Source: Alphaproteobacteria bacterium RIFCSPHIGHO2_02_FULL_46_13 (lineage in GTDB: Bacteria > Pseudomonadota > Alphaproteobacteria > Micavibrionales > Micavibrionaceae). From it: 64,000 bases of DNA. The notes under the pieces are model-generated. The model ran no database searches, was not told where the DNA came from, and saw only the letters and a program-made list of their open reading frames with translations. This document shows, one piece after another, positions 1,137 to 37,113 of the stretch (within the stretch, counting starts at the first letter, position 1; every line of letters begins with the position of its first letter). The translations under genes and the position numbers were made by a program. Location of the stretch: NCBI GenBank assembly GCA_001767915.1, contig MEMI01000027.1, positions 4,227-68,226 of the forward strand, in the 5' to 3' direction.

Positions 1137-3476
1137 TTACTGTCCGAATTTATGCGGGCTGTCTGCGCCGAACACTTGTGCGCCGACAGTTGAGACAGCG
1201 GTCACGTTGACAATACCACGGGTGGTTGCGGCGTTGGTGACGATTTGGGCTGTGTGGCGCATACCCAGAAGGATCGGGCCGATGGGGATACAGTCGGAGA
1301 GGACTTTGACCGCGTTATAGGTGATGTTTGCGGCATCCACATTCGGCATCACCAACAGGTTGGCAGAGCCTTTGAGGGTGGAATTCGGCATAATCATCTT
1401 ACGGATTTCTTCGGACAAGGCCGCGTCTGCGTGCATTTCGCCGTCGATTTCCAGATCAGGTGCGCGGGTTTTAATGTCAAAATACGCATCGCGCATTTTA
1501 AACGCACTCTCGCCACGGTGTGATCCGAAATTGGAGTGGGAAATCAATGCAACTTTCGGAACGATCCCGAATTTGCGCATTTCTTCTGCCGCCAGCAAGG
1601 TCATTTCAGAAATTTGCGCGGCGGTTGGATCAGGGTTCACATGGGTGTCACAAATAAAGATCGGCCCGCGTGTCGGGTGGAGGAGGCATGGCATGGCTGC
1701 CGCGGCTTCAACACCTGCGCGCAAACCAATCACATCGGTGACGGTCATCAAATGGTCACGGTAGGCACCAATGACGCCACAGATCAGGCCGTCGGCCTCA
1801 CCCTTGGCAACCAAGAGTGAACCGATAACGGTGGTATCAGTCCGCACAATGGTTTTCGCGTGGTCTGGGGTCACGCCATTGCGTTCCATGATTTTGTGAT
1901 AGCTCTGCCAATAATCGGTATAGCGTTTATCGGATTCAGGATCGACCAGTTCGAAATCTTTGTCGATTTCCATGCGGAGGCGCATGCGTTTCAAACGTGT
2001 TTCAACAACATGGCGGCGACCGATCAAAATTGGTTTTGCCAATTGCTCATCGACCACGGTTTGCACTGCACGCATCACGCGTTCTTCTTCACCTTCGCAA
2101 TAGACAATCTTTTTCGGATTATCGCGTGCCTTGGCAAACATCGGGCGCATCACCACGTCAGAGCGGTAGAAGAATTGAGTGAGTTTCGCGCGGTATGCAT
2201 CCCAGTCGGTAATCGGGCGGGTTGCAACACCTGTTGCCATCGCGGATTTTGCAACCGCAATCGGCAGTTCGAAAATCAAACGTGGGTCGAATGGTTTCGG
2301 GATCATATAGTTTGGCCCGAATTCTAAATTCTCATCACCATAAATGGCGGCCACTTCGGCGGTGACTTCTTTGCGTGCCAGATCGGCAATCGCGCGGACA
2401 CAGGCCATTTTCATTTCTTCGTTAATCGCCGTTGCACCAACATCCAATGCCCCACGGAAAATGTATGGGAAGCACAAGACGTTATTCACTTGGTTCGAGA
2501 AGTCAGAGCGACCGGTGCAGACGATGGCATCCGGTTTTACCTTAAGCGCTTCGTCAGGCATGATTTCAGGTGTTGGGTTGGCGAGCGCCATGATGAGAGG
2601 AGCATCCGCCATATCGGCAACCATTTCTGGTTTCAATGCGCCAGCGGCAGAGAGCCCCAAGAAAATATTCGCGCCTTTAATCGCGTCCGCCAATGTGCGG
2701 GCGGATGTTTCAACGGCGTAGACTTCCTTCTCAGGATCCATGCCTTCGTTACGGCCTTTATAGACAACGCCCGTGCGGTCACAGACGATAATATTTTCTT
2801 TCGGAAGGCCAAGTTGTACCAGCATATTGAGGCAAGCAATCGCCGCTGCGCCAGCACCTGATGCCACAAGTTTCACATCTTTGAATTCACGACCCGTGAT
2901 TTTCAACCAGTTGAGAATAGCCGCGCCAGAAATAATCGCTGTTCCGTGTTGGTCATCATGGAACACAGGGATTTTCATGCGTTCACGGAGGGTGCGTTCA
3001 ATTTCGAAACATTCAGGGGATTTAATATCCTCAAGGTTGATCCCGCCGAAAGAGGGTTCGAGCGAGGCGATAATTTCGATTAATTTTGCAGGGTCGGTTT
3101 CGTCAATTTCAATGTCAATGGAATCAATGTTGGCGAATTTTTTAAAGAGAACTGATTTCCCTTCCATCACTGGTTTCGATGCCAGTGCACCAATCGCGCC
3201 GAGACCCAGAACAGCCGTCCCGTTGGTAATGACCGCAACCACGTTTCCGCGGGAGGTATAGTCGAGGGCTTTTAAAGGGTCTTTTTCAATCTCTTCACAT
3301 GCAAATGCCACTCCCGGGGAATAGGCCAGCGATAAATCGCGTTGGGTCATCATCGGCTTGGTCGGGACAATCGCAATCTTACCCGGGCGAGGGTACATAT
3401 GGTATTCAAGTGCAGCTTCGCGCAAATTGTCTTTAGGTTTTTCGTCATGTGGAGGTTTGGTGGTCACGATATGCAT
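1137..3476 (-). CDS. maeB: NADP-dependent malic enzyme (malic enzyme domain fused to phosphate-acetyltransferase-like domain)
   Basis: 779-aa ORF. N-terminal malic-enzyme/NAD(P)-binding region (VITNGTAVLGLGAIGALASKPVMEGK, GAGAAAIA) plus a ~330-aa C-terminal PTA-like domain, the typical MaeB architecture. Many antisense shadow ORFs. Confidence 0.95.
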   Translation of the reverse strand: MHIVTTKPPHDEKPKDNLREAALEYHMYPRPGKIAIVPTKPMMTQRDLSLAYSPGVAFACEEIEKDPLKALDYTSRGNVVAVITNGTAVLGLGAIGALASKPVMEGKSVLFKKFANIDSIDIEIDETDPAKLIEIIASLEPSFGGINLEDIKSPECFEIERTLRERMKIPVFHDDQHGTAIISGAAILNWLKITGREFKDVKLVASGAGAAAIACLNMLVQLGLPKENIIVCDRTGVVYKGRNEGMDPEKEVYAVETSARTLADAIKGANIFLGLSAAGALKPEMVADMADAPLIMALANPTPEIMPDEALKVKPDAIVCTGRSDFSNQVNNVLCFPYIFRGALDVGATAINEEMKMACVRAIADLARKEVTAEVAAIYGDENLEFGPNYMIPKPFDPRLIFELPIAVAKSAMATGVATRPITDWDAYRAKLTQFFYRSDVVMRPMFAKARDNPKKIVYCEGEEERVMRAVQTVVDEQLAKPILIGRRHVVETRLKRMRLRMEIDKDFELVDPESDKRYTDYWQSYHKIMERNGVTPDHAKTIVRTDTTVIGSLLVAKGEADGLICGVIGAYRDHLMTVTDVIGLRAGVEAAAAMPCLLHPTRGPIFICDTHVNPDPTAAQISEMTLLAAEEMRKFGIVPKVALISHSNFGSHRGESAFKMRDAYFDIKTRAPDLEIDGEMHADAALSEEIRKMIMPNSTLKGSANLLVMPNVDAANITYNAVKVLSDCIPIGPILLGMRHTAQIVTNAATTRGIVNVTAVSTVGAQVFGADSPHKFGQ

Positions 3477-24106: not shown

Positions 24107-24186
<80 letters not shown>

Positions 24187-24199
24187 AAATCAATTAGTT

Positions 24200-24228
24200 A
24201 GCCGCTTTCGAGCGGCTTTAATTTTTTA
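24200..24228 (+). terminator. rho-independent terminator after tRNA-fMet
   Basis: agccgct-ttcg-agcggct hairpin followed by ttaatttttt. Confidence 0.65.
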
Positions 24229-24530
24229 TCAGGGCTACTCTGGGGATACCATTCGCACGAATAGGTAGTCTTGTATCTCAGCCGATAAATGCCCATCCCA
24301 CCCCTCCGCCGTACCCAAATCATCTCGGTGTAAACACGCATCTAGCCGAGCAACAAAATATCGAATTTTAAGATCAAATTGTTATTGTCGATATTTTTGT
24401 GCCGTATGTATTCTTCTATGTATATTTTTTGCAATAATGATTGTCATGCAGGGGATTCTCATTATCATGATTTTCTGTTAAAATAGAAAAAAGTTAAATA
24501 AAATCAAAATATTAACCCATCCAAGATGCC

Positions 24531-25340
24531 ATGAAGAAAATTGATGAAAAAATGCTAGAGAATGATATTAAGGCTATGCTGATTGAACATCTTCGGCATA
24601 AGCAGGTTATTTCTAGTAACTCGGTTCTGATAAATGAATTTAATATTGATGGTTTCACTAATCGCGCTGATCTTGTGATTGCAGAAGATGACGGCCTGTT
24701 TGCGTATGAAATTAAAAGTGAATCTGATACTCTTCAGCGCTTAGAAAAACAGGTCGAAAAATATTCCCAATTCTTCGACAAAGTGATAGTTGTCGCAGCT
24801 ACAAAACATATTCCTAATGTCCTTAGTATAGTTTCCTCTGACATAGCTGTTTGGGAAGTTACGCCGTCAGGTTTTAAGGTTCTGCAGAGAGGGCGTGCAA
24901 GCAAATCTCAAGAGAGGGAAAATCTTTTGAGAATATTGAATGTTAAAGAGCTTAAGAGGCTGGCTGTCAATTCTGGCCGCATACCAGATGCTATACGGAG
25001 AAGCTTTTTAGAGGCTGTTCTATCAGATATTTCATATGCCCAGCTTCGCAAAGCTGTAATAGAAGCTCTTCGGGAGAGGTATTATAATTCGTCTATGAGC
25101 TTTTGGCAGATTGCAAGTGATTGCGTTAAGCCTTGCCACATCACCGAATTAAGCCCTTATCTTGCCCAAAGAAGACGAATTAAGATGTTGGAGCAAGAAC
25201 AAAAGGCTTTCTGGGATCGCTGGCATGACGAAATAAAAAGAATGCCAGATGATCCAATGCTAATAGATTTATTGGGTCAAACTGAAGAATCTTTATTTGG
25301 TGAAATCCCCGATAGCGTAAGAGCTATACTTTCTAGGTAG
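24531..25340 (+). CDS. PD-(D/E)xK nuclease-fold protein (sce7726-like)
   Basis: 269-aa ORF. RADLVIAEDDGLFAYEIKSESD gives a D...ExK core after an N-terminal helix, followed by a helical C-terminal half. The family name is recalled from memory. Confidence 0.65.
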   Translation: MKKIDEKMLENDIKAMLIEHLRHKQVISSNSVLINEFNIDGFTNRADLVIAEDDGLFAYEIKSESDTLQRLEKQVEKYSQFFDKVIVVAATKHIPNVLSIVSSDIAVWEVTPSGFKVLQRGRASKSQERENLLRILNVKELKRLAVNSGRIPDAIRRSFLEAVLSDISYAQLRKAVIEALRERYYNSSMSFWQIASDCVKPCHITELSPYLAQRRRIKMLEQEQKAFWDRWHDEIKRMPDDPMLIDLLGQTEESLFGEIPDSVRAILSR

Positions 25341-25343
25341 ATT

Positions 25344-26465
25344 TTAGTCTACCCAATCATCATCCGTATCAATTTTTGTTCCGGTCGCCAAGTTGTAATG
25401 CAACTGACGGTGAAGATGTATATTAATACGCACAGCGGTAGCATGGCGAGCGTTAGTGATATGGTTCGTTTTTGATGCGGCTTCAATCTCTTTTGCCCCC
25501 CAAACGTCAAGACCACTTTCCCATGCGGGATCAGACACAAGAGCTTTCGCTGCCTTTCTAAAAGCTGCGTTTCTCTTTTTCTCGTCCTTTGTATCTTCCT
25601 TGCTTATTTTTTCCCTGGAAATTTTCCAAAAATCTTTAAGCGGATAATCAATTCTCGGCGATCCAGACCATCCGGAGTCGGTTGTTTCAGCTCTAACACT
25701 TCCTCTATCGCTGTAAATCATATCTGCAAGTGGACATAAAGAATCTACCATTTGATAAAATTGGCGCTCATATATTGGCTTGTCGGCGACCCCTTCAATC
25801 CCCGAGAATTCAGAAGGGAATGTTGTTGATGATACTATAAATGTGGCATTTGGAATTAACCTAACCATACCATTAACAAATCCTGATACAGATGCTGCGT
25901 AAGTCAATAAGTCTGCCTGCGCTCTTTGGCCACTTCTGCCGTAGTCTATAATGACATAAAGATCTTCAATTTCTTTTGCGGCCAATACTTGTAGGACTGT
26001 ATTCCAGACCTGAATATTATCTTCATTAAATCTAACTGCAATTCCTCTGTCTAACTCTAGGAAAGCATCTATTTGCGCGGCCAGCTGCGAAGGCTCTTCT
26101 AGCTGAAGACAAGGAATTACCTGCTCATGCTGCTCGACAAAGTCACACCAGTTTTTATAGCCTGATGCTGGGTTCTTTAAAGATATTAGTTGATGATGTA
26201 CGGGCTTCTTTTCATGATCGGGTAAGGTACTTTTTTCTGAATAGTAAACGCTGCAAATGTCTGCAATCCAGGGACGATTACCAAACGCCTTCTCAATTCT
26301 TTCTATTGACTTTGAGAGATTAAGGGCATTTTGCCATCCTCTTAGCATGATAATAGGTAAGAGGGCATCCTTATCTTTATTTGACAAATTTTCTAGCGCG
26401 GCCATTTCTGAAGGTCGCACTGCGATTAGTGGTAGGTAGCTATATGTTGAAATATCTACGAGCAA
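25344..26465 (-). CDS. beta-protein / sce7725-like protein
   Basis: 373-aa ORF. The N-terminus YLPLIAVRPSEMAALENLSNKDKDALLPII resembles the start of beta-protein (PF14350)-type families as I remember them. Alternating beta/alpha-like pattern. Confidence 0.6.
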   Translation of the reverse strand: MLVDISTYSYLPLIAVRPSEMAALENLSNKDKDALLPIIMLRGWQNALNLSKSIERIEKAFGNRPWIADICSVYYSEKSTLPDHEKKPVHHQLISLKNPASGYKNWCDFVEQHEQVIPCLQLEEPSQLAAQIDAFLELDRGIAVRFNEDNIQVWNTVLQVLAAKEIEDLYVIIDYGRSGQRAQADLLTYAASVSGFVNGMVRLIPNATFIVSSTTFPSEFSGIEGVADKPIYERQFYQMVDSLCPLADMIYSDRGSVRAETTDSGWSGSPRIDYPLKDFWKISREKISKEDTKDEKKRNAAFRKAAKALVSDPAWESGLDVWGAKEIEAASKTNHITNARHATAVRINIHLHRQLHYNLATGTKIDTDDDWVD

Positions 26466-26482
26466 ATTCTTATACCTTATGC

Positions 26483-26980
26483 TTATCTGCCAAGACGAAT
26501 GTTTAGGGCAGTGGTTGATACACCTAATTCAGTAGCAATTTTATCAACTCTTTCTTCAATATCATCATTCCTATACTGCTTTAATTTTTCTTCTATAATT
26601 TCCCAGGGCATTAAAATATCGGCGGCAAGTCTATTAGCTTCAGCCTCTCTTTTGTCTGTGAGCTGAGAGCGATAAAGCACATTATCTTGAATGCCACTAC
26701 CTATCTCACTCCTGTGCAGAAAATAATGCGCTAATTCATGAGCCAATGTAAATCTTTGCCTATTTTTGTGTTCATGTCTATTCACGCGAATGATAAAACC
26801 AGCATTAGCTTCTTCATCAGGCTTTATCTCACCAGAAATGCCGACAGGTAATGTTGCACTTTTGACGATCAGACCCAATTCCGCTCCTAATTCGCCAAGG
26901 CGCATAGGTTGCTCAAGCTGATACCTCTTTATCAGCTGTTTTGTAGTTTCATCTAATTGGTTCCATTCACGCGAAAACAT
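26483..26980 (-). CDS. ImmA/IrrE-family Zn metallopeptidase
   Basis: 165-aa ORF with HEXXH (FTLAHELAHYFLH) and a downstream EAEANRLAADILMP, the COG2856/Peptidase_M78 signature. Confidence 0.85.
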   Translation of the reverse strand: MFSREWNQLDETTKQLIKRYQLEQPMRLGELGAELGLIVKSATLPVGISGEIKPDEEANAGFIIRVNRHEHKNRQRFTLAHELAHYFLHRSEIGSGIQDNVLYRSQLTDKREAEANRLAADILMPWEIIEEKLKQYRNDDIEERVDKIATELGVSTTALNIRLGR

Positions 26981-26996
26981 ACAAAATTCCTAAACC

Positions 26997-27404
26997 TTAC
27001 GCATTGGTATCACCATTTTGTGGGCTAGATAAGCCAACATCCGGATAAACTAATCTCTCAACAGTATCTTTTAAGTATTCTCTCAGTTCTCCGCCTTCTT
27101 TGAGCTGACGTTTAACCTCTTCTTCAGCGCGTCGAGCGGCATTTGCTTTTATTTCCTGGTAGCCGAAAACAGCTAAAGCGCCGAGCACAACGCTGCCTAG
27201 TGCAAACATCACACCTAATACAGTGAGTAAGATGACAACTAAATCTGTGTATTCCATATCAATTTTTGCCTCTAAGCCCGATGACAGAGTGACTTTTGCA
27301 ACTTGAAAAACGCATATTATCGCTCCGACTAAAATCCCTAAACCAAAAATTCCAAATGCGGATGGCCATCGTATATCCACGATTTGGGGTTTTTCCTTCG
27401 CCAT
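26997..27404 (-). CDS. two-TM membrane protein with charged coiled C-terminal tail
   Basis: 135-aa ORF with hydrophobic segments AFGIFGLGILVGAIICVFQVA and LVVILLTVLGVMFALGSVVLGALAVFGY, then QEIKANAARRAEEEVKRQLKEGG. It lies 16 nt upstream of the peptidase gene. Confidence 0.65.
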   Translation of the reverse strand: MAKEKPQIVDIRWPSAFGIFGLGILVGAIICVFQVAKVTLSSGLEAKIDMEYTDLVVILLTVLGVMFALGSVVLGALAVFGYQEIKANAARRAEEEVKRQLKEGGELREYLKDTVERLVYPDVGLSSPQNGDTNA

Positions 27405-27623
27405 ATCAAACCTTCCATCTTTATCTTATATTAAGGGAGGAAATATATAAACAGAAAATCGATTAAATAGTATGTAATATCAATATGTTTCTGTGGTGCT
27501 TTTATCTCATAATTTAGCACATAAGTGTGATCATTTATTGTAATGGTTTGTATAACCGAGATTCTATGGGGGAGCGTTGTATTATAATATAGAAAATAAA
27601 AAACGAATTGTGTGTTATCGGGC

Positions 27624-27956
27624 TCACTCGTTTAGCTGAATACATCCGTATGTCCCAGGCACCCTCGATAAGGAAGGATCACCGTTATATTCCTGTGCAG
27701 CCTCTAGGCAGGTCTGTCGATCGTCAGCATAGCCGGTGAATATTGCCAGATAATCGTTGCCGTTTTTTACAAAGGCATAGTCAGGGGATGACCCCACACG
27801 ATTTTTTGATAGAAATTCTATCAATTCTTTGCTTGTGATAATTTTAGATTGCGAGGTTTGCGACATTAACGGTTTGACCCAAACGCTAACCATAACGATC
27901 ATAAAAATTATCGAAAAAATATGTACTGTGCTTTTAAAGATGCTTTCGATCTTCAT
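27624..27956 (-). CDS. small exported/membrane-anchored protein
   Basis: 110-aa ORF with an N-terminal hydrophobic segment (VHIFSIIFMIVMVSVWV). It lies 13 nt downstream of the lipoprotein gene. Confidence 0.55.
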   Translation of the reverse strand: MKIESIFKSTVHIFSIIFMIVMVSVWVKPLMSQTSQSKIITSKELIEFLSKNRVGSSPDYAFVKNGNDYLAIFTGYADDRQTCLEAAQEYNGDPSLSRVPGTYGCIQLNE

Positions 27957-27969
27957 GGTTATGCTCTTT

Positions 27970-28686
27970 TTAATACTGATAGCTTGAACAATTCATCACA
28001 TCTGCATCCCATCGGCATTGTGTATGAATAGGTTTGTTTACCTGTTGTTGATTATAAGAGTTTTGGTAGGCTTGCTGTTGCTGATTATAATTTTGGAATG
28101 TTGATCCCATCGCTTGCCACATGGCTGCCTCTGATTGTAGTTGCTGAAAATGCTGCTGATCTAGTTGACTAATTATTGCCCTCTGGTGGTCTTCCCATTT
28201 CTTAACAAGGTATTGAATTACATTTTCTAGACTGGAAGCTGCTTCTCCTCCTGTGATTTTTTCGTGTAAATATTTTGTGTAAATATTATTACGAAGATCA
28301 GTGGATTCTTGTGCGATAGGCGCAAATGACCTGACGTAGTAATCAGGGTTATTTTTTATTTTTTCTTGCCCTCGATCTCGACAGTTTCTTGAGGTTTCTA
28401 TCAATTGGGACATAACTTGCTTGTCGCTCATCCTTATATAATCTGGGTTGGCTTTTGTCTTTGTCGGATTATCGGATTTCGATACAAACAGTATCTTTTT
28501 CAATCTTGGTTGAGTATCCCAGACCGCATTATTACAAGTTTCGATTTCTGCGCCGATATTGCTTAATGTTGCTTCCATAGAATTATATGTTCTTTGCGCC
28601 GCTGTTGGTGCATTTGAGATTGAGGCGCATGAGCTGATAAGAAAACACAACATGGCCAAAGAAGAAACTCTTATGTATTTGATCAT
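27970..28686 (-). CDS. lipoprotein with Gln-rich C-terminus
   Basis: ORF 27970..28701. The ATG at 28686 has GGGAG 8 nt upstream. Lipobox LISSC; the C-terminal region is QQ-rich (QNYNQQQQAYQNSYNQQQ). Confidence 0.65.
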   Translation of the reverse strand: MIKYIRVSSLAMLCFLISSCASISNAPTAAQRTYNSMEATLSNIGAEIETCNNAVWDTQPRLKKILFVSKSDNPTKTKANPDYIRMSDKQVMSQLIETSRNCRDRGQEKIKNNPDYYVRSFAPIAQESTDLRNNIYTKYLHEKITGGEAASSLENVIQYLVKKWEDHQRAIISQLDQQHFQQLQSEAAMWQAMGSTFQNYNQQQQAYQNSYNQQQVNKPIHTQCRWDADVMNCSSYQY

Positions 28687-28700
28687 TATTAAATCTCCCA

Positions 28701-28734
28701 AAATAAAAAAGTCACCAGCAGGGCTTCTGGTGAC
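28701..28734 (-). terminator. intrinsic terminator immediately upstream of the lipoprotein RBS
   Basis: On the minus strand: GTCACCAG-AAGCCCTG-CTGGTGAC followed by TTTTTTATTTT, then GGGAG and the ATG. Confidence 0.7.
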
Positions 28735-28880
28735 TGGGAGTTTAGAAGTCGCTATAAGACGACCGCGACGGTCTTTAACCGTTAGGTCTGGACATACACC
28801 GTCGCCTCCCAGCCATAACTGAGAAGCGACGTGTTGACGGACACATCATCCGCTTATAGAGAGGTTCTAAAGCCCCAGAC
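28735..28880 (-). promoter_or_regulatory. GC-rich structured leader / candidate cis-regulatory RNA
   Basis: Nested complementary segments: 28736-28747 with 28866-28877, 28753-28759 with 28852-28858, and 28767-28773 with 28797-28803. In addition, 28806-28815 is complementary to 28731-28740, which overlaps the 5' arm of the terminator. Confidence 0.35.
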
Positions 28881-29047
28881 CAGCCCTGACTGATCTGCAA
28901 TCACTTTAGAACAATATGAATTTATAAGAAAGGCCTGATTTTCTTGTTTAAAACCGTTTTACGGTGCAGTTTGAACCTTCTTAGGGTGTGATATGTTTGG
29001 TTATATCCCAAAACGCCGCCATAAGAATTCTTTCTGAGATTTAAAAA

Positions 29048-29443
29048 TTACAGTATCATGCGCCGATACCAGCCTGGCAGATTGGGGTAATGTGCTTTCA
29101 AAAAGCTCATAATAATGGCTCTATCAGTCGGGGGCATATCCTCATAAAGTAACTTTTTGAGGCTTTCGATTTTGTCATGATATGCCTTACCGCTCCATCT
29201 GTATATGAACTCCTGTTTCCCATTTTTCGAGTTTATCAAGTGTCGGGGTTTGTAGGCACGTTCAATATGACCGCTTTTCACAAGTTGTAGTAGGGAAGAT
29301 GTTGGTTTGATGTCCCTGCCAAGTTCTACTTTTAGGTGCACTGTGATTGCCCGTGAAGAAAACCACTTTCGGGAATTCGCGGTTAGCAACAGCATGATTG
29401 ATCCTTTGACGGATAAAAGGCGTTTCTCATTTTGCTGGGTCAT
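29048..29443 (-). CDS. hypothetical protein (possible winged-helix DNA-binding)
   Basis: 131-aa ORF. The pattern SSRAITVHLKVELGRDIKPTSSLLQLVKSGHIERAYKP is wHTH-like, but this is a weak call. Confidence 0.55.
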   Translation of the reverse strand: MTQQNEKRLLSVKGSIMLLLTANSRKWFSSRAITVHLKVELGRDIKPTSSLLQLVKSGHIERAYKPRHLINSKNGKQEFIYRWSGKAYHDKIESLKKLLYEDMPPTDRAIIMSFLKAHYPNLPGWYRRMIL

Positions 29444-29516
29444 GGTTTGTCTTCCATATTAACTGGTTAGTACTTTCGCAAAAAGCGAAATTCTTCAGCG
29501 GAGTGTGAAGAAGCCA

Positions 29517-29630
29517 GAAGATGCCCAATAGTTTTTGAGCATCTTCGATATATTTGAGCTTCTTCGAAGGTGCTCAAAATAGGGAAGATGGCCACAGATT
29601 TGTGTTGGGCACATTTGGAGCATCTTTGAC
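29517..29630. repeat. iteron-like repeat cluster (candidate island replication origin)
   Basis: Copies: tttgagcatcttcga (29534-48), tttgagcttcttcga (29553-67), an inverted copy tcgaaggtgctcaaa (29564-78) and a degenerate copy tttggagcatctttga (29614-29). It also has gaagatgCCCA/gaagatgGCCA direct repeats and a tgcccaa/ttgggca inverted pair. Confidence 0.5.
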
Positions 29631-29635
29631 TACCT

Positions 29636-31534
29636 TTATTCATAGGAGCACATAGCCTCCAGCAGGTCTTCCTCCCCCACAGGTATAAAATCTGCATTGG
29701 AAGAAGAAGACTCCCACAACCAGCCGCCGCCGAATCCGATCTTCCGCGTTCTGATGCCTAACTCCTTTTGAGCACGCCGGATTGTGCTCCAGGAAAAACC
29801 CGCGTTTTCTGCTGAAGACTTAATCTCATTAACCGCAACCGGCCCTGAGCGTAGTTCTTCGCGCAAAAAATCACACGCTGCCATTCGCCCTGTATTTCGT
29901 GATTCTGGGTCACGCTCAGCCCGAGCCAGAATGTCCGCAGCCGTTCCAGAAATCGTATCCCCCCATTCGATGGAGGTTGCCTGAATATCACCTTCAATCT
30001 CTGTATTAGCCAGAGAAAACGTAAAGCCTCCTCCATCAAGCCCGAGGTTGCTTTTTACACGACAAAAGACACGCTCTCCTGTTTCTGCATCTCGAATGTT
30101 TGCGAAAGCAAGGCGAGCAACAGCACCAAAAGCTAGAGACCCTGTAAACCGATCCAAAGGTGCACGACCGCTTGTATTTTTGCTGAAGTGCGTTATGCCC
30201 CAAAGTGCTATTCCAAGTTCTTCAGCAAGATTGACCAAAGGTGCAAGCCCGCGACGGGTTTCAGAGTTTTTGTGACTGTCTCCGACGACCGCTTGCGTAA
30301 TTGGATCGACGATCAACAAAGCCGGACGCAATTTTCGGAGCGGTTCGATTAGCGCAAGAATGTCAGTTGCAGGATCAAAAGCCCTTTTGTGACCATCAGC
30401 TTTTACATCGCCGATGAAATGACAGTTTTGCCGATCAGCACCGGCAGCGATCAGTCGAGGTAAAAGCGTATCACGCACGCCATCTTCACCACTCCAAATC
30501 GCAATCGGTGCTTTTATCGCCCGCACTCCATCCGGCCATGTTCCACCAGCTGAAATAGTTGCGGCAAGTTTGAGTGCAACCGTTGTTTTAGCCGTACCAG
30601 CTGGCCCTCCATGCAAATGTAACTTGCCACGAGCAATGTATCCATCCCAAAGCCAGTTAATTTTTTCTGGAATAAGGCTCGCCGCAGAAATGAGATCAAT
30701 ATGCACTGAACTCCCGTTGTTTTCATCTGCGACAGCTCGTCTTGCTGACTCTATCGTTTGTATAATTTCAGTTTCATCGAAACCGGACGCGATCATGCCT
30801 GACAATATTGTGCGAATATCGTTTTCTGTACGTCCTTCCCGCAACAATTGGCATGCTGATGAGAAGGCTGTACTGTTGCGCGATCCCTCTTTGGCGTCTA
30901 AAGCCGCACTCAATGGCTGATGGTGAGGCTGAAAATCACCGCGTGTTTTTGCTTTATCTTTTTTGCGGGGAGGATCGTTTACAAGTCGTAATAAATCAGG
31001 AGGTGCTTCTGCAATCGTAGCTTTGGGATCAATCCATGAATAAATAGTGCCCGATAGGTGGCGGGAACCTGCGCTCACGACATAGCCGCCTTCAGCCTTA
31101 CAATCGACTTTCGGCAAAATTGGTCGTGATTTTATTGATGCACCTTCGGGGAGTTGAAAAAACATATGACGGCCGCGTCCTGTCCTGCACGTCAATGTTT
31201 CTGGCAAAATAGGGCAAGATTTTACCAGTGCTTCCTCACCCTCTAATCCGTCGATGTCAATGACGAAAACTTTAGACAGAGAACCTGTGGCAATCCCGAT
31301 ATTAAAATGTTCACGACTAGAGACTAACTCAATAAATCGACCAAGATCACATGTTGCGTCTTTCAATCCGTTTTGTGTTGCAGGATGTTTTCCCTGTCTG
31401 TTACAGGTTGATTTTCCGCATGTACAGTTTCCATCTTTTATGCCGTATAGTGGAAAAATATAAAACCCTCTAGCAAGCAACCCTTGTGCAGCATCACCAT
31501 GAGCCAATTCAAAATGAGAAATTGGATCAGACAT
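29636..31534 (-). CDS. bifunctional primase-polymerase (PrimPol) / RecA-like helicase (AAA_25/RepA-type) replication protein
   Basis: ORF 29636..31654. The ATG at 31534 overlaps the upstream stop codon (ATGTCTGA). The N-terminal PrimPol region has FPLYG...GKHP and VIDIDG. A Walker A (GPAGTAKTT) lies in the central domain, and the C-terminal tail is wHTH-like. Confidence 0.87.
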   Translation of the reverse strand: MSDPISHFELAHGDAAQGLLARGFYIFPLYGIKDGNCTCGKSTCNRQGKHPATQNGLKDATCDLGRFIELVSSREHFNIGIATGSLSKVFVIDIDGLEGEEALVKSCPILPETLTCRTGRGRHMFFQLPEGASIKSRPILPKVDCKAEGGYVVSAGSRHLSGTIYSWIDPKATIAEAPPDLLRLVNDPPRKKDKAKTRGDFQPHHQPLSAALDAKEGSRNSTAFSSACQLLREGRTENDIRTILSGMIASGFDETEIIQTIESARRAVADENNGSSVHIDLISAASLIPEKINWLWDGYIARGKLHLHGGPAGTAKTTVALKLAATISAGGTWPDGVRAIKAPIAIWSGEDGVRDTLLPRLIAAGADRQNCHFIGDVKADGHKRAFDPATDILALIEPLRKLRPALLIVDPITQAVVGDSHKNSETRRGLAPLVNLAEELGIALWGITHFSKNTSGRAPLDRFTGSLAFGAVARLAFANIRDAETGERVFCRVKSNLGLDGGGFTFSLANTEIEGDIQATSIEWGDTISGTAADILARAERDPESRNTGRMAACDFLREELRSGPVAVNEIKSSAENAGFSWSTIRRAQKELGIRTRKIGFGGGWLWESSSSNADFIPVGEEDLLEAMCSYE

Positions 31535-31904
31535 AGCGCATCCCTTCCTGTCCGATCCAAACGAAAAAAAGGCCATTCTTAGTTGGTGTTTGCGGAATTG
31601 TATTGGTGCAGATAATTTGACTACCGTCCGGCATGAGCGCGATAGGCATATCAAGTACTGCCATATACTGAAATTTTCTTCTATGAGCTACTGTCAGCAC
31701 CTCAGAGTAACATTCTTCAGTAAACTTCATAAACTCACGCCAGATGGCTTGAAATGCAGAAAGTCTATTTTTTTCATCAATGCGAATATGTTGGAAACCA
31801 ATATATTTCCGAATGTGCTTATGAATTTCTGTGCCGGATAGATGCTCAGGCTGAAGCAAAATGTTTTCTTTCAACTCGAACTGTTTTCTAGTATAGTATG
31901 ACAT
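31527..31904 (-). CDS. hypothetical protein
   Basis: 125-aa ORF, translationally coupled to the PrimPol-helicase gene through an 8-nt overlap. Confidence 0.6.
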   Translation of the reverse strand: MSYYTRKQFELKENILLQPEHLSGTEIHKHIRKYIGFQHIRIDEKNRLSAFQAIWREFMKFTEECYSEVLTVAHRRKFQYMAVLDMPIALMPDGSQIICTNTIPQTPTKNGLFFVWIGQEGMRYV

Positions 31905-31958
31905 AGCAAATATCTTTCTATGAGGTGTTGGCGCACCTCATTTTTCATTTGTTGAATA

Positions 31959-32150
31959 TTATTGAATTTGAAGGCGGCTTTCGACAAAAGTGAGTAAATC
32001 GCTTTCACGGTATTTGACCAAACGTCCTATTTTACAAAATGGTAGAGGGTATCTTTTGGTGCTTCTCCAAACTGATAATGTGCCCGGCTCTAGCCCCAAA
32101 AAATCTGCGGCTTCTTTTTCGCTATATAGCGTCTCTTTAATTCTGCTCAA
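31959..32150 (-). CDS. AlpA/excisionase-family HTH protein
   Basis: 63-aa ORF. EKEAADFLGLEPGTLSVWRSTKRYPLPFCKIGRLVKYRESDL matches the AlpA/Xis MerR-like HTH pattern. Confidence 0.8.
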   Translation of the reverse strand: MSRIKETLYSEKEAADFLGLEPGTLSVWRSTKRYPLPFCKIGRLVKYRESDLLTFVESRLQIQ

Positions 32151-32238
32151 TGCACACCTCCTGCATAACGGGTTATCTTCTTCCGTTTATACAGGTGAAT
32201 CTCAGTTAAAACAAATTAAGTTATTGATTTTAAATGAT

Positions 32239-32269
32239 AAAATAGAATGCGTAATATGCGTTCTATTTT
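32239..32269 (-). terminator. AT-rich hairpin overlapping the stop of the 255-aa gene (weak terminator candidate)
   Basis: aaaatagaa/ttctatttt 9-bp stem with a 13-nt loop. Confidence 0.35.
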
Positions 32270-33030
32270 TCTAGATTTTGTTTGAAATCCTTAAGTGCAT
32301 CCTTTGCAATTTTGACGTTCTGCATTTTAAATCCACATACTTTGCAGGATTCTTCATAAAGAAAAATATAAAGCCCGTTATCAGTTGAGGTGGGTTTCTT
32401 GTCGAAATATTTTATGTAAGTGCGGATGAGGTCTTGGGAAAATTTATAACGGGTATCTTGATTGCGAATATTCTTGCGACTTGTTGTGTTTTGGGTTTCT
32501 TCTACGAACGAAATTGCATCGTTTGATGCTTTTGTTGCCAAGGGGAGTAAGTTTTCAAAAAAATCAGCGATATTTTCCGCTTGATCGAAATTTAAAATCT
32601 CGTCTTCGCTATTTTTTTCGTTTAGATGTCTATAAATCGCGCTGATAAAATAACTTCTAAAAAAGGGGGTTATTTTAAAATCCTGCAATTTAGTCCTTAT
32701 TGGTGTGAGTTGTCTTAGGTTGCCGCCGCTAAGAAGTTGCATATTGTTTTTAGAGAACAACATGCGTGTCATTGCCTTTAACAGGGCCTTCTCAAATGAT
32801 TTAAGGCGGGTGTCATCTATGTCGAGTTTTCCTAAAATCCCATCCTTAATTTTCTTCCAAAAGTCGCTATTGGATTTCAGGAGCGTATATTCGGCCAATT
32901 TGCTTGGATCACCTGTTAGAACATAATCGTTGTAACCTTCAGGCCATGCAGTTTTCTTATGGGCTTGCAAACCTTCTGGTGTGAATTGTGCTTTATATTT
33001 TAAAACATAATCATCATCCATTGCGCCCAC
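32263..33030 (-). CDS. hypothetical protein
   Basis: 255-aa ORF. Its start overlaps the integrase stop by 17 nt. No domain recognised. Confidence 0.6.
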   Translation of the reverse strand: MGAMDDDYVLKYKAQFTPEGLQAHKKTAWPEGYNDYVLTGDPSKLAEYTLLKSNSDFWKKIKDGILGKLDIDDTRLKSFEKALLKAMTRMLFSKNNMQLLSGGNLRQLTPIRTKLQDFKITPFFRSYFISAIYRHLNEKNSEDEILNFDQAENIADFFENLLPLATKASNDAISFVEETQNTTSRKNIRNQDTRYKFSQDLIRTYIKYFDKKPTSTDNGLYIFLYEESCKVCGFKMQNVKIAKDALKDFKQNLEK

Positions 33031-34324
33031 CGTTTCCCGCGTTGCTGATTGCTGAACTTGCCAACTGGACGGACTCCCTCACAGGATCAAGATCGAGCCG
33101 CGCATAAACGGCGGTGGCTTGCTGGCTTTTGTGTCCGAGGGATTTTCCAATGACATATTGGTTTGCACCGGCAGCGGCCTGAAAACTGCCCAATGTACGG
33201 CGTAAGTCATGAATGCGAATATCCATTAATCCCGTTGGCAATTCAACTTTTTGCTTTTTAGCGAGGCTTTCAATCGCCGCATACAGAATGTGATCGTATT
33301 TGATGTTATTGGTCTGTTTAATTGCTTCACTGACCAGCGGGGCAATATGCTCGTGGGCTTGCCAGAACTTGATTGTGGCGTTAGTCAGGATGCGTTTCCA
33401 CGGCTTTTTAGGATCTGCAAGATGTCCGTCTGTCTTCTCGCTAGGGAATACCCATTTTTGGTTTGTCTTCTGTTGTCGACGTTTTAGAATGTCATCGGCT
33501 TCTTTGGATAGGGCGATGGTTAGAGAGTCTCCATTCTTTGTTTCAGGAATGCGCCATTCTAATTGTTGGAAGTCAATTTCAATCCAGCGCATAGATAATA
33601 CGTTTGATTTCCTTGCTCCAGTGTAAAGTGACATGAGGATGTAATCGCAAGCCGTCTCATTTTCTTCTTCGCTTAAGGCCTCAAAGAAGTAGGGGAGTTC
33701 GCTTGGTTTTAAAAAGCGGTCGCGTGACTTTTCCTTAAATTTCTTTATTCCTTGCGCTGGATTAGAGCCTTGCCAACCCCATTCAATCGCTTTGTTGTAA
33801 ATAGCGCGGATACGCTCCAAAAGCCTGTTTGCTTGATAGATGCCATTTTCAGTAGCAACCTTATCATGTTGCCGTTGTACTTCGTCGCGGCCTATAGAGG
33901 ACAGCTTGCGATTAAACCAATGTGGCAGGAATTTATTGATTTCCCGTTCATCATATTCCCATGATCGTTTATGCTTTTTGCTGTAACGCTCCATATAATC
34001 TTTGAACATATCACCAAAGGTAATTTCTGCCTTTATACGTTGTTTTTCAATATTTGGATTAGTCCCTTTTGAAATGAGGGCACTTACTTCCTCAGCCTTT
34101 ATTCTCGCATTCTCGATTGACCAGTCTTGCACGTCTCCGATGGTATAGCGGATGGGTCTACCGTTCATCTTGCGATAAACCTTATATGTTTTCTTGCCTG
34201 TGTCTGTGACTTCCAGTCGCAAAGCTTTTGTGCGTGTGTCTTGGTATTGGTTGCGATTACCACTTGCTGCAGCGGGAAGGGATTCGATGGTTTTCTTTGT
34301 AAAATTGAGTTGTTGAGTTGCCAT
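33014..34324 (-). CDS. int: tyrosine recombinase / P4-type integrase
   Basis: 436-aa ORF with a DUF4102-like arm-binding N-terminus and the catalytic residues HDLRRT...LGH...Y (IHDLRRTLGSF, LGHKSQQATAVYARL). Confidence 0.93.
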   Translation of the reverse strand: MATQQLNFTKKTIESLPAAASGNRNQYQDTRTKALRLEVTDTGKKTYKVYRKMNGRPIRYTIGDVQDWSIENARIKAEEVSALISKGTNPNIEKQRIKAEITFGDMFKDYMERYSKKHKRSWEYDEREINKFLPHWFNRKLSSIGRDEVQRQHDKVATENGIYQANRLLERIRAIYNKAIEWGWQGSNPAQGIKKFKEKSRDRFLKPSELPYFFEALSEEENETACDYILMSLYTGARKSNVLSMRWIEIDFQQLEWRIPETKNGDSLTIALSKEADDILKRRQQKTNQKWVFPSEKTDGHLADPKKPWKRILTNATIKFWQAHEHIAPLVSEAIKQTNNIKYDHILYAAIESLAKKQKVELPTGLMDIRIHDLRRTLGSFQAAAGANQYVIGKSLGHKSQQATAVYARLDLDPVRESVQLASSAISNAGNGGRNG

Positions 34325-34487
34325 TTTCGGGATACCTTGGGGCTACCATTTTTATCTATTTTCGTTATAAATGGTAAAGGTAAATTAAGTCAATGGCAAG
34401 TGAATTGTTGCTCTAAGTATATGTTTTATATATAAAAAACAAACCTCATATCTTTTTGTTAAGATTGGTAAAAATAATTGGCTCTGT

Positions 34488-34537
34488 GGCTCATAACCTG
34501 AAGGTCGTCAGTTCAAATCTGGCTCCCGCAACCAATA
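34488..34537 (+). repeat. attR: 50-bp direct repeat (displaced tRNA-fMet 3' part)
   Basis: Identical to 24137..24186. It lies 163 nt from the integrase start codon. Confidence 0.9.
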
Positions 34538-34971: not shown

Positions 34972-35123
34972 TCATGAGCAAATTAGAAAAATATGCGGAA
35001 AAGATATTCTATAAAATTCATTGGTGATATTGTTATAAAATTGTAAATTTAAGTACCAATTTTATACTAGGCAGTCCTAATACTAATATGTCTAAAATGT
35101 ATCGATAAGTGAGCCTGTTTGTG

Positions 35124-35801
35124 ATGAGAATACTTTTAGTTGAAGACGATACGCAGGTTTGTGATTTTATCAAAAAAGGTCTTGTTGAGGCAGGGCATAT
35201 TATTGATATTAAATTCAATGGTAAGGACGGATTGAGTGCTGCGCAGAATAGATTCTATGACGTTATTATTTTGGATAGAATGTTGCCTCAACTGGATGGT
35301 ATTAGTATTATTCAAACACTTAGGGTTGATGGTAATTCAACCCCAATTATTATTTTGAGTGCGCTGGCGGATGTGGAAGACCGTGTTCTAGGGCTTAAAA
35401 GCGGGGGGGATGATTATCTTGTGAAACCTTTTGCATTCGCAGAACTTCTGGCACGTGTTGAGATATTAGGACGACGCAATACCTTAATAAATGACCAGCC
35501 ATCCAAACTTAAAGCGGGGCAACTTGAATTGGATTTAATCACAAGGCTCGTGTCGCGCGAGGGACGGCTGATTGAGTTACAGGCGAGGGAATTCAAGTTG
35601 CTTGAGTATATGTTGCGTCATAAAAATCAGGTGATTACGCGTGCGATGCTTTTGGAAAATGTATGGGACTACCATTTTGATCCGCAAACAAATGTAATTG
35701 ATGTGCATATTTCAAGATTAAGAAATAAGGTGGATAAAGATTTTGAAACCCAAGTTATAAGGACAGTACGTGGATCCGGTTACATTATTCAAGACGAATA
35801 A
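35124..35801 (+). CDS. OmpR-family response regulator
   Basis: MRILLVEDD, the receiver Asp in ILDRMLP, and a winged-helix output domain (RVHISRLRNKV...IRTVRGSGY). The ORF track opens at GTG 35109. Confidence 0.92.
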   Translation: MRILLVEDDTQVCDFIKKGLVEAGHIIDIKFNGKDGLSAAQNRFYDVIILDRMLPQLDGISIIQTLRVDGNSTPIIILSALADVEDRVLGLKSGGDDYLVKPFAFAELLARVEILGRRNTLINDQPSKLKAGQLELDLITRLVSREGRLIELQAREFKLLEYMLRHKNQVITRAMLLENVWDYHFDPQTNVIDVHISRLRNKVDKDFETQVIRTVRGSGYIIQDE

Positions 35802-37113
35802 GCGCGGTTATTTTAGAAGTTCCAGCTTCGTCATGGCGCTTTTGTTTACTGTCATATTAGGTCTGGCTTCAGGTATTCTTGGCTATTCTGGATATTACCT
35901 TAACCGAAATCATTTTATCCTCGGGATGGAAGAGATTTTGGATACAGAATATCATTATCTGAAAGGTGCTGAAAACCGTGGACAATTACAGGTTATATTA
36001 AATGAACAATTGCAGAATCCAAACCGCATTTATTTGCTGACGCGCGATAAAAATCTCTTTGTGGCTGGAAATATAACTTCTTATCCTGCGGAGGCACAGC
36101 AGCTTAAAGACGGCCTGATTTATTTCACCCAAGAGAATACAGAAAATATATACGCGGCAAAATCTTATGAATTAGGCAATCGGTTGACTATTCTCATTGG
36201 GTCAAATATGTCCGATCTTATCTATACAGAACGAGTTATTTTGTGGATGGGGGCAGCAACAATTTTATTAATGATGCTTGTTATTATTGTGAGTTACCTG
36301 ATTAGCACATTTGTTGTCAGTCGAACCAACCATATCGCCGAAACGGCCAGAACGATTATGGAGACGGGTGATCTCTCCCGCAGGATTATCATTGATTCAA
36401 GATGGGATGATTTAAGCAATATGGCCTTTGTTCTGAATAATCTTTTGGGACGTATTGAGGAGTTAATGTCGGGAATTCGGCGTGTTGCAGATAATATCGC
36501 ACATGATTTGCGTACCCCTTTGACACGTCTTCGTAATAACTTGGAAATATTGAATAAGAATGATCAGTATAATAGAGTTGAGACTCTCATAAATGATGCT
36601 GATCATATCCTATCGACTTTTCAGGCTGTCTTGCGGATTAGTAAAATTGAAAATGCTCCATCTAAAGAACATTTCAAAGGTTGTGATCTAAAAGAAATTT
36701 TAAATGATGTGATTGAATTATATGACCCATTGGCGATTGAAAAATCAATTCGCATCCAATCTGATATGGTGCCGTCAGCACCTTATTTCGGAGATGCGAA
36801 TCTGCTCTTCCAGATGTATGCCAATCTTTTGGACAACGCGCTCAAGTTCACGCCCGCAGGTGGCGATATTCAAATTTCGCTTGCCCAGAATGAGCAGCAG
36901 AAATATTTAACAGTCATTCAGGATAGTGGCATAGGTATCCCCGAGGAAGACCAGAAATATGTTTTTGATAGGTTCTATCGTGGAGAGAAAAGTCGTTCAT
37001 CAGAGGGAAATGGGCTTGGGCTTAGTCTGGTTCAGGCTGTTGTACAACTCCATAGCGGTCGGATTTCCTTGGAAAGCCATGAAAAAGGGCTTGGTGTTAT
37101 TATAACTCTCTGA
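35770..37113 (+). CDS. sensor histidine kinase (2 TM, HAMP, HisKA, HATPase_c)
   Basis: 447-aa ORF with H-box AHDLRTPL, N-box LLDNALKFT and G-boxes DSGIGI/GNGLGLS. The start may instead be the ATG at 35833. Confidence 0.9.
   Translation: MDPVTLFKTNKRGYFRSSSFVMALLFTVILGLASGILGYSGYYLNRNHFILGMEEILDTEYHYLKGAENRGQLQVILNEQLQNPNRIYLLTRDKNLFVAGNITSYPAEAQQLKDGLIYFTQENTENIYAAKSYELGNRLTILIGSNMSDLIYTERVILWMGAATILLMMLVIIVSYLISTFVVSRTNHIAETARTIMETGDLSRRIIIDSRWDDLSNMAFVLNNLLGRIEELMSGIRRVADNIAHDLRTPLTRLRNNLEILNKNDQYNRVETLINDADHILSTFQAVLRISKIENAPSKEHFKGCDLKEILNDVIELYDPLAIEKSIRIQSDMVPSAPYFGDANLLFQMYANLLDNALKFTPAGGDIQISLAQNEQQKYLTVIQDSGIGIPEEDQKYVFDRFYRGEKSRSSEGNGLGLSLVQAVVQLHSGRISLESHEKGLGVIITL

Follow-up and report, generated by a model that had tools for sequence, protein, structure and literature searches.

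We analysed a stretch of 64,000 nucleotides (hereafter the window) from Alphaproteobacteria bacterium RIFCSPHIGHO2_02_FULL_46_13, which carries a tight set of four genes encoding a small protein with two transmembrane helices (2-TM), a metallopeptidase of the M78 (ImmA/IrrE) family, a Beta-family protein and, in convergent orientation, a protein of the cII/sce7726 family. We propose that these four genes form a member of the Gop-beta-cII family that lies, as cargo, next to attL in a 10-kb element integrated at a tRNA-Met gene, and that the locus would act as a protease-gated membrane toxin, a reading to which we assign a probability of roughly 0.6. Three of the four genes correspond to a named, experimentally validated system, and the novelty is narrow: it lies in the insertion of a minimal M78 peptidase gene between the Gop-like gene and beta, an arrangement that forms a widespread four-gene subtype. 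The first-pass annotation of this DNA had suggested that the locus may not match any described type. Yet Beta and cII are homologous to those of gop-beta-cII from the satellite P4, the gene order is alike, and the combination of a peptidase with a Beta-like protein is known from PD-lambda-2. The P4 system had been cited there as background, and this is indeed the relevant family, but it was missed that the locus is itself a member. The proposed abortive-infection type of defence stands as the most plausible role, by analogy with the relatives.

The four open reading frames (ORFs) and the junctions between them were all reproduced as first annotated, and the tight four-gene module that they had been said to form is upheld, as the quartet is conserved elsewhere. 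The 2-TM gene is separated by 16 nt from the peptidase gene and the latter by 17 nt from beta, while beta and the convergent cII gene are 3 nt apart. A motif resembling a ribosome-binding site precedes each of the four starts (GGAAGG upstream of the 135-aa ORF), and scans of the cassette for promoters and terminators returned no more sites than were found in shuffled sequence. All four proteins are annotated in databases as "hypothetical protein" (in the Alphaproteobacteria metagenome-assembled genome RIFCSPHIGHO2_12_FULL_45_9). As the four recur together in more than 30 other loci, we consider these ORFs to be genuine genes and not chance frames.

The Beta and cII genes are both recognized by family profiles. 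The 373-aa protein, in which the N-terminal motif quoted earlier (YLPLIAVRPSEMAALENL) is present, was rightly assigned to the Beta family: it matches PF14350 at 5e-53 over the full length of the profile (positions 1-342 of 342) and the PADLOC beta model at 1.2e-46, and is 28% identical to P4 Beta across 99% of its length (tblastn). A resemblance to sce7725 proteins, also put forward at the time, was not recovered, as NCBIfam gave no family at E<=0.1. The PD-Lambda-2_C models match the protein much more weakly than the PADLOC beta model (1.7e-6 and 3.8e-6), and based on these profile scores the window Beta and PD-Lambda-2_C appear to be separate subfamilies of one superfamily. Profile searches of Beta and of cII against PDB sequences gave nothing meaningful, and folds therefore had to be compared. 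The AF2 model of Beta (pLDDT 88.7, pTM 0.89) alternates beta and alpha elements, and its Foldseek matches in the PDB are all TIM barrels (Kce 2y7d, triose-phosphate isomerases, GH2 barrels), with low TM-scores of 0.33-0.5; the comparison with BFVD returns an uncharacterised Gordonia phage protein (TM-score 0.65) along with further TIM barrels. Beta is thus predicted to fold like a divergent TIM barrel and to have a conserved polar pocket. Its invariant or near-invariant polar residues (D69, Q121, R145, D174, S212, D253 and R271/D273) would sit at successive strand ends, as in the active sites of TIM barrels, according to a one-dimensional assignment of the modelled elements. Such a placement makes Beta look more like an enzyme or a ligand-binding protein than like a passive antitoxin.

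The C-terminus of Beta is disordered and ends in an invariant acidic tail, ...DTDDDWVD-COOH (window 25344-25370). A short disordered acidic-aromatic tail ends all Betas of our set (loci L001-L056), with the consensus D-T-[DE]-[ED]-[DE]-W-x-D in the clade of the window and the forms ...DEEDFDDFDF or DEEDYDDLI in P4-type proteins. The idea that an acidic tail is specific to peptidase-containing loci was thus rejected. We take the P4-type tail to resemble the C-terminal tip of SSB. The Gop-like proteins likewise end in acidic tails, and the tails of both proteins may serve as docking or bait peptides.

The 269-aa protein belongs to the sce7726/cII family, as had been suggested: it matches the NCBIfam model sce7726_fam at 7.9e-41 (score 140, for a cut-off of 70 bits) and the PADLOC model cll at 1.1e-51, has the precomputed Pfam assignment PF26915 (Phage_P4_cII), and is about 32-35% identical to P4 cII. 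The stretch RADLVI...YEIKS, on which a PD-(D/E)xK core had been proposed, is found in the protein, and this core is borne out by the conservation of its candidate catalytic residues. Invariant in 22 cII sequences are E36, R45, D47, E60, K62, D66, R70 and Q74. The AF2 model (pLDDT 85) shows an alpha-beta-beta-beta-alpha-beta core (H10-23, E32-39, E44-52, E55-62, H71-81, E84-90) followed by a helical part at about residues 125-269, and its credible Foldseek matches are all PD-(D/E)xK proteins (SPO1766 3dnx at 5.7e-5, SfsA-DNA, AF1548, Bax1 and YaeQ). The N-terminal part is thus modelled as a PD-(D/E)xK nuclease fold with E36, D47 and E60-x-K62 as its core, and nuclease activity is predicted. The cII homologue of the Pasteurella phage Pmp11 carries a SAP DNA-binding motif in its C-terminal region.

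The first gene of the operon encodes a 135-aa protein with two TM helices, the motif "...FGY" after the second, a charged helix in the cytoplasm and, at the C-terminus, an acidic tail. It has no match in the Pfam, NCBIfam, PADLOC or PHROG libraries. In length it is close to the Gop proteins of P4 (133 aa) and Pmp11 (131 aa), and all three begin with two hydrophobic helices and continue into a charged tail, which is a coiled coil in P4 and Pmp11. Given the same operon position and the same architecture, the 135-aa protein is the counterpart of Gop by these features, not by sequence: as a sequence homologue of P4 Gop it was discarded, BLASTP, the PADLOC gop model and hhalign all being negative. 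The PADLOC gop model, which scores P4 Gop at 4.8e-70, seems narrow, since the Gop-like protein of Pmp11 is missed by it too. It had been proposed that this membrane protein fills the position of the helix-turn-helix (HTH) partner of the peptidase; its position is instead that of Gop, as P4 Gop is also a 2-TM protein of ~133 aa with a coiled-coil tail. A holin or lysis cassette was also considered for the 2-TM gene; the absence of an endolysin and the presence of Beta and cII as partners led us to reject it. PanE, a "2TM-beta family protein" described in a preprint, is an unrelated CBASS-type effector.

The 165-aa protein encoded between the Gop-like gene and beta is an ImmA/IrrE-type peptidase, as first annotated: PF06114 matches it at 3.3e-21, the HExxH...E motif looks intact, and HELAHYFLH and EAEANRLAADILMP are both present in the translation. 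The catalytic H80-E81-x-x-H84 and E111 are invariant in 26 orthologues, and no other protein of the cassette is as well conserved as the peptidase (58% mean column identity versus 25% for the membrane protein). Its best profile match is the PADLOC model capP (2.2e-30, restricted to profile positions 3-150 of 242), and the nearest solved structures are CapP (7t5t, 1.9e-5), with an alignment spanning residues 79-175 of the 291-aa chain, and IrrE (3dte, 1.4e-4). In CapP and IrrE, the peptidase domain is joined to a central HTH and to a GAF domain at the C-terminus, and single-stranded DNA (ssDNA) binds in the interdomain groove; the substrate of these enzymes is an adjacent HTH repressor, and CapP also has a cysteine-switch loop (bioRxiv 10.64898/2026.05.16.725639). 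The window protein shares with CapP/CapH, IrrE/DdrO and ImmA/ImmR the M78 catalytic domain and the occurrence in immune or mobile-element operons, but it ends at residue 165 and has no GAF domain, its whole translation contains no cysteine and hence no CapP-type cysteine switch, and it has no adjacent HTH repressor of the CapH, DdrO or ImmR kind. In line with the earlier statement that an HTH partner is missing, library scans found no HTH family match in the peptidase, in the cassette or in the neighbouring ORFs of the island. Its gene also lies inside the effector operon, whereas those of CapP, IrrE and ImmA lie divergently upstream. Devoid of the GAF domain, of cysteines and of an HTH partner, the peptidase is, judged by its sequence, not a CapP/ImmA-type regulator in its defining features, and would have to be controlled and targeted differently. 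Many RmrA models of PADLOC also match the peptidase domain (1e-10 to 1e-6). Rosmer (RmrT/RmrA) and other three-component Xre-COG2856 toxin-antitoxin (TA) systems share this domain and the defence or TA context with the window locus. They differ in that RmrA is a ~380-aa HTH-peptidase fusion; the window has no HTH and no RmrT-like partner, and its neighbouring genes are others.

It is nevertheless conceivable, and in our view quite improbable, that the peptidase works as an ImmA/CapP/IrrE-type transcriptional switch that, after DNA damage, cleaves a repressor encoded by the host or by another part of the island and so induces the cassette or the island. CapP and IrrE are its best profile and structure matches, members of the family usually cleave an HTH repressor in response to ssDNA (bioRxiv 10.64898/2026.05.16.725639), and P4-type phage cassettes adjoin a CI-like repressor gene. 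Yet there is no HTH gene in or beside the window cassette, which transfers without one, the ssDNA-groove GAF domain and the cysteine switch are both missing, and the peptidase gene always lies between the membrane gene and beta, whatever element surrounds it.

The constancy of this arrangement emerges from a scan with a Beta alignment, made with one genome per GTDB species, which yielded 33 loci, 30 of them with enough upstream sequence to be judged. Within the Beta clade of the window, all 30 loci encode an M78 peptidase (42-60% identical) immediately upstream of Beta and a membrane protein upstream of the peptidase (tblastn detects the latter protein in 9), and a convergent cII follows downstream in 29, having been lost from the remaining one (L030). 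The conservation of the gene neighbourhood, which the first-pass annotation had named as a check on its proposal, is thus found: the quartet recurs. The membrane proteins of the 30 loci measure 127-258 aa and share a hydrophobic segment, a very hydrophobic second TM helix with "...FGY" at its end, and after it a charged helix and an acidic tail; those of Alphaproteobacteria are short like that of the window, and those of Gammaproteobacteria contain a periplasmic coiled-coil insert of ~80 aa. The quartet is found in Vibrio, Photobacterium, Pseudomonas, Alteromonas, Shewanella, Acinetobacter, Marinobacter, Brevundimonas, Micavibrio and Rhodospirillaceae, as well as on a Neorhizobium plasmid (L039) and in two IMG/VR contigs. 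On this plasmid, the peptidase gene (2971-3471) is absent from the PLSDB gene table, and the cassette is directly preceded by a reverse-transcriptase gene (RVT_1, 953-2200) and followed by a Phd-type TA pair and an integrase. The Beta family is of modest size (447 representatives at 50% identity among 1.84 billion proteins), and a C-terminus of the window type is found in most of its top 150 representatives. The tails of these 150 suggest that the peptidase-linked clade is larger than the P4-type clade.

Two further arrangements were observed. In one (protein P0015, L040 383-2008), a single ORF of 541 aa fuses an M78 peptidase to Beta. The junction is A-rich (gataaaaagaaaaaagga ... gtaaaaaaatat), and a true fusion and an indel artefact are both possible. 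We set it aside as "Rosetta stone" evidence, as it comes from one 4.6-kb contig with such a junction, and retain it only as a weak hint. In the other, on the Sinorhizobium fredii plasmid pSfreNXT3b (L038 1689-5203), a distant Beta (23% identity) stands with a convergent sce7726-family gene, and the Gop-like protein and the peptidase are replaced upstream of Beta by two unrelated proteins of 159 and 341 aa with no Pfam match. As this locus keeps Beta and cII with other upstream genes, these two would form the invariant core of the family, with upstream partners that vary.

The closest characterized relative is the P4 system itself, composed of gop (133 aa), beta (355 aa, 651-1718) and convergent cII (264 aa, 1746-2540(-)). 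In E. coli it confers protection from lambda and P1 (Rousset et al. 2022, PMC9122126), its Gop is toxic unless neutralised by Beta (PMC9122126; Ghisotti et al. 1990 as cited there), and expression of the phage gene orf184 makes the system kill its cells (bioRxiv 10.1101/2023.04.06.535777). These properties are documented for the P4 and E. coli versions. The window locus resembles it in its homologous Beta and cII, in the small 2-TM gene that comes first, in the convergent cII nearly abutting beta, in its carriage by a mobile element with a P4-type integrase, and in a presumed abortive-infection or TA-like behaviour. It differs first by the additional M78 peptidase between the Gop-like gene and beta. 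This departs from the three-gene composition of Gop-beta-cII, as the peptidase accompanies all 30 loci of the window clade and is found neither in P4, nor in Pmp11, which has the same gop-beta-cII trio as P4, nor in 14 P4-type Beta loci that we retrieved from IMG/VR viral contigs with a broader motif. Furthermore, the membrane protein of the window has no sequence similarity to Gop and is missed by PADLOC gop, its Beta falls in a separate clade (TAVRINIHL..., tail DTDEDWxD), its cassette sits at the att end opposite to the integrase, and its carrier is not a recognisable P4-like satellite, a Prim-Pol/AAA_25 protein taking the place of the alpha primase. Where the flanks of these P4-type IMG/VR loci, which lie on temperate-phage contigs (L043-L056), are complete, the 2-TM Gop-like gene, beta and cII lie directly downstream of a CI-like repressor gene; such a repressor is also annotated next to gop-beta-cII in phage Pmp11. 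This position presumably recalls that of rexAB in lambda. We found no description of a peptidase-containing subtype of Gop-beta-cII in the searchable literature, most subscription journals lying outside this search.

The second system of relevance is PD-lambda-2, which comprises a HigB-like protein (A), a protein with an Xre HTH and an M78 peptidase (B) and a Beta-like protein essential for defence (C) (Vassallo et al. 2022, PMC9519451). It shares with the window locus an M78 peptidase domain, combined with a Beta-like protein of what appears to be another subfamily, and is itself TA-like with an abortive-infection phenotype. It differs in that its peptidase is fused to the Xre HTH and has a HigB-like partner, and in that no 2-TM protein and no cII are described. 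The window peptidase, with its 165 aa, has no HTH domain and thus not the architecture of component B, and no PADLOC or Pfam match to the HigB-like component A was found among seven neighbouring proteins. This comparison brings up an alternative that we consider unlikely, namely that the peptidase is itself the toxic effector, in the manner of the Lit protease or of PD-lambda-2B, cleaving an essential host or phage protein and being restrained or localised by Beta and/or the membrane protein. PD-lambda-2B is toxic when overexpressed alone (PMC9519451), no cognate HTH substrate was found for the window peptidase, and the latter being the best conserved protein of the cassette would fit a fixed cellular target. 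On the other hand, the match to PD-lambda-2B is weak and confined to the peptidase domain (2.9e-10, profile positions 288-369 of 402), the toxic part of the peptidase-less P4 system is Gop (PMC9122126), and P4-type loci function without a peptidase, which makes it look more like an add-on regulator than like the effector at the core of the system.

We prefer to place the toxicity in the membrane protein. In the protease-gated model, the Gop-like protein would be the cell-killing effector, by analogy with the toxic Gop of P4, and Beta would restrain it and serve as the sensing or regulatory subunit, for which P4 Beta and PD-lambda-2C are precedents. The peptidase would act as a post-translational switch between the two, as it is specific to this clade, always encoded between the Gop-like gene and beta, and devoid of a sensor domain or substrate of its own. 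A phage cue would lead it to cleave a component of the cassette, be it Beta or the Gop-like protein in its cytoplasmic tail, and the ensuing membrane damage would abort the infection. The protein cII would be a DNA-directed accessory, acting as generator of the cue, as sensor or as second effector. A more far-reaching version, which strikes us as rather doubtful, would see in the M78 peptidase and the TIM-barrel Beta a conserved sensor-protease core common to the cassette and to PD-lambda-2, with Beta, as an enzyme or a ligand-binding subunit, taking over in trans the role of the GAF sensor domain of CapP/IrrE. The protease would then act post-translationally on a protein of the cassette, for instance on the cytoplasmic tail of the Gop-like protein or on the invariant acidic-aromatic tail of Beta, and not on a repressor. 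The architecture with four genes would predominate and might be ancestral, and the three-gene system of P4 would be a reduced form of it.

Several points weigh against the protease-gated model. That the peptidase cleaves Beta or the Gop-like tail is purely what we infer, and the defensive role of the four-gene loci is drawn by analogy from their relatives. The homology of the 135-aa protein to P4 Gop is undetectable, with a BLASTP E value of 0.19 and no PADLOC gop match, and hhalign of an 18-sequence family profile against P4 Gop gives a probability of 0.2%, so that the toxicity of the window protein is assumed by analogy. In PD-lambda-2, the toxic part is the peptidase-containing protein, which suggests a different wiring (PMC9519451). 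The invariable presence of the peptidase applies to the clade of the window alone, as the motif of the scan (TAVR[IV]N[IL]H...) leaves out P4-type Beta, and the sole peptidase-Beta fusion, on one short contig, may be an assembly artefact. Finally, the defence signal around the 30 loci is modest, with ~7 of 124 flanking ORFs matching PADLOC models.

Two Logan contigs (L036/L037) share 87% DNA identity with the window over 3017 bp, which sets the limits of the cassette given in Table 1; no identity extends beyond, and the flanking genes differ. Because the identity is confined to the cassette while its neighbours change, the cassette is a discrete mobile unit of ~3 kb. In L036 (4687-16408), this copy stands between a Fic/DOC gene and genes for a T5orf172/MUG113 protein, a 691-aa helicase-like protein, a 218-aa HEPN-like protein and an MmeI-type enzyme, a neighbourhood that looks like a defence island. 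Across the 30 loci, the 124 flanking ORFs inspected with Pfam and PADLOC are heterogeneous, and include 3 integrases and 2 phage GPA proteins. The L036 copy, with its Fic, HEPN and MmeI-type neighbours, points to defence, and the signal in the flanks at large is modest; a claim of enrichment in defence islands, which had been named as a check, was dropped, ~7/124 being too weak without a background. These contexts bear on a further alternative, to which we leave a slim chance, that the cassette is chiefly an addiction (TA) module that stabilises its mobile element and has no dedicated anti-phage role. The toxin-antitoxin-like behaviour of Gop and Beta (PMC9122126), the occurrence of the loci in integrative elements, plasmids and prophages, and the small number of known defence genes in their flanks are all consistent with it. 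Against this, relatives give measured protection from phages (PMC9122126, PMC9519451), one of them is triggered by a phage gene (bioRxiv 10.1101/2023.04.06.535777), a near-identical copy lies among restriction, HEPN and Fic genes, and four conserved genes including a nuclease fold exceed what plasmid addiction usually needs.

The carrier of the cassette is a complete integrative element of 10.35 kb (24137-34537), delimited by two perfect copies of a 50-bp repeat of which the left one overlaps the 3' end of the tRNA-Met gene (Table 1). These repeats confirm that the cassette adjoins attL, as first annotated: it starts 260 bp inside the element, at the attL end and opposite to the att end of the integrase. 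The element is flanked by the host genes for COQ9 and a UbiB-like protein. No capsid-hijacking or packaging genes (Psu/Sid/Delta/Epsilon), alpha primase or cos site were detected in it, so that it is not recognisable as a P4-like satellite. Between the cassette and the replication genes (27624-28701) lie two island ORFs, of 110 aa with an N-terminal hydrophobic segment and of 243 aa, Q/N-rich with a lipoprotein-like N-terminus; both are without Pfam, NCBIfam, PADLOC or PHROG match and fall outside the 87%-identical cassette shared with L036. The remaining ORFs of the element, including 29048-29443, 31527-31904 and 32263-33030, have no Pfam or PHROG match. Beyond attR follow a two-component system (35109-37113) and a long series of ORFs on the same strand, and the window has between 35000 and 45000 a GC content of 0.38-0.42, lower than the rest, with a strongly positive GC skew of up to 0.27.

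Table 1. Features of the four-gene cassette and of its carrier element (positions in the window).
Feature	Position	Strand	Basis
attL, 50-bp direct repeat over the 3' end of tRNA-Met (tRNA 24107-24183)	24137-24186	+	repeat match
Limits of the mobile four-gene cassette	24446-27458	no strand	DNA homology to Logan contigs L036/L037
cII/sce7726-family gene	24531-25340	+	269 aa ORF
Beta-family gene	25344-26465	-	373 aa ORF
Minimal M78 peptidase gene	26483-26980	-	165 aa ORF
Gop-like 2-TM protein gene, first gene of the operon	26997-27404	-	135 aa ORF
Replicase, Prim-Pol/PriCT/AAA_25	29636-31654	-	Pfam domains
Integrase, P4-type (Arm-DNA-bind_3 + Phage_int_M + Phage_integrase)	33014-34324	-	Pfam domains
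attR, second, perfect copy of the 50-bp repeat	34488-34537	+	repeat match

Collectively, this locus ties together Gop-beta-cII and PD-lambda-2, both of them validated anti-phage systems, and reveals a broad clade of Beta/cII loci in which a peptidase of the ImmA/IrrE type is a constant member and has neither the sensor domain nor the repressor substrate usual for such enzymes. This four-gene subtype is likely to escape detection rules built on a match to the narrow P4 gop model. The predicted TIM barrel with its conserved pocket would make of Beta something other than a simple antitoxin, and offers a testable handle on its role. The cassette as a whole would provide a test of an M78 protease wired into an effector pathway rather than into a transcriptional switch.

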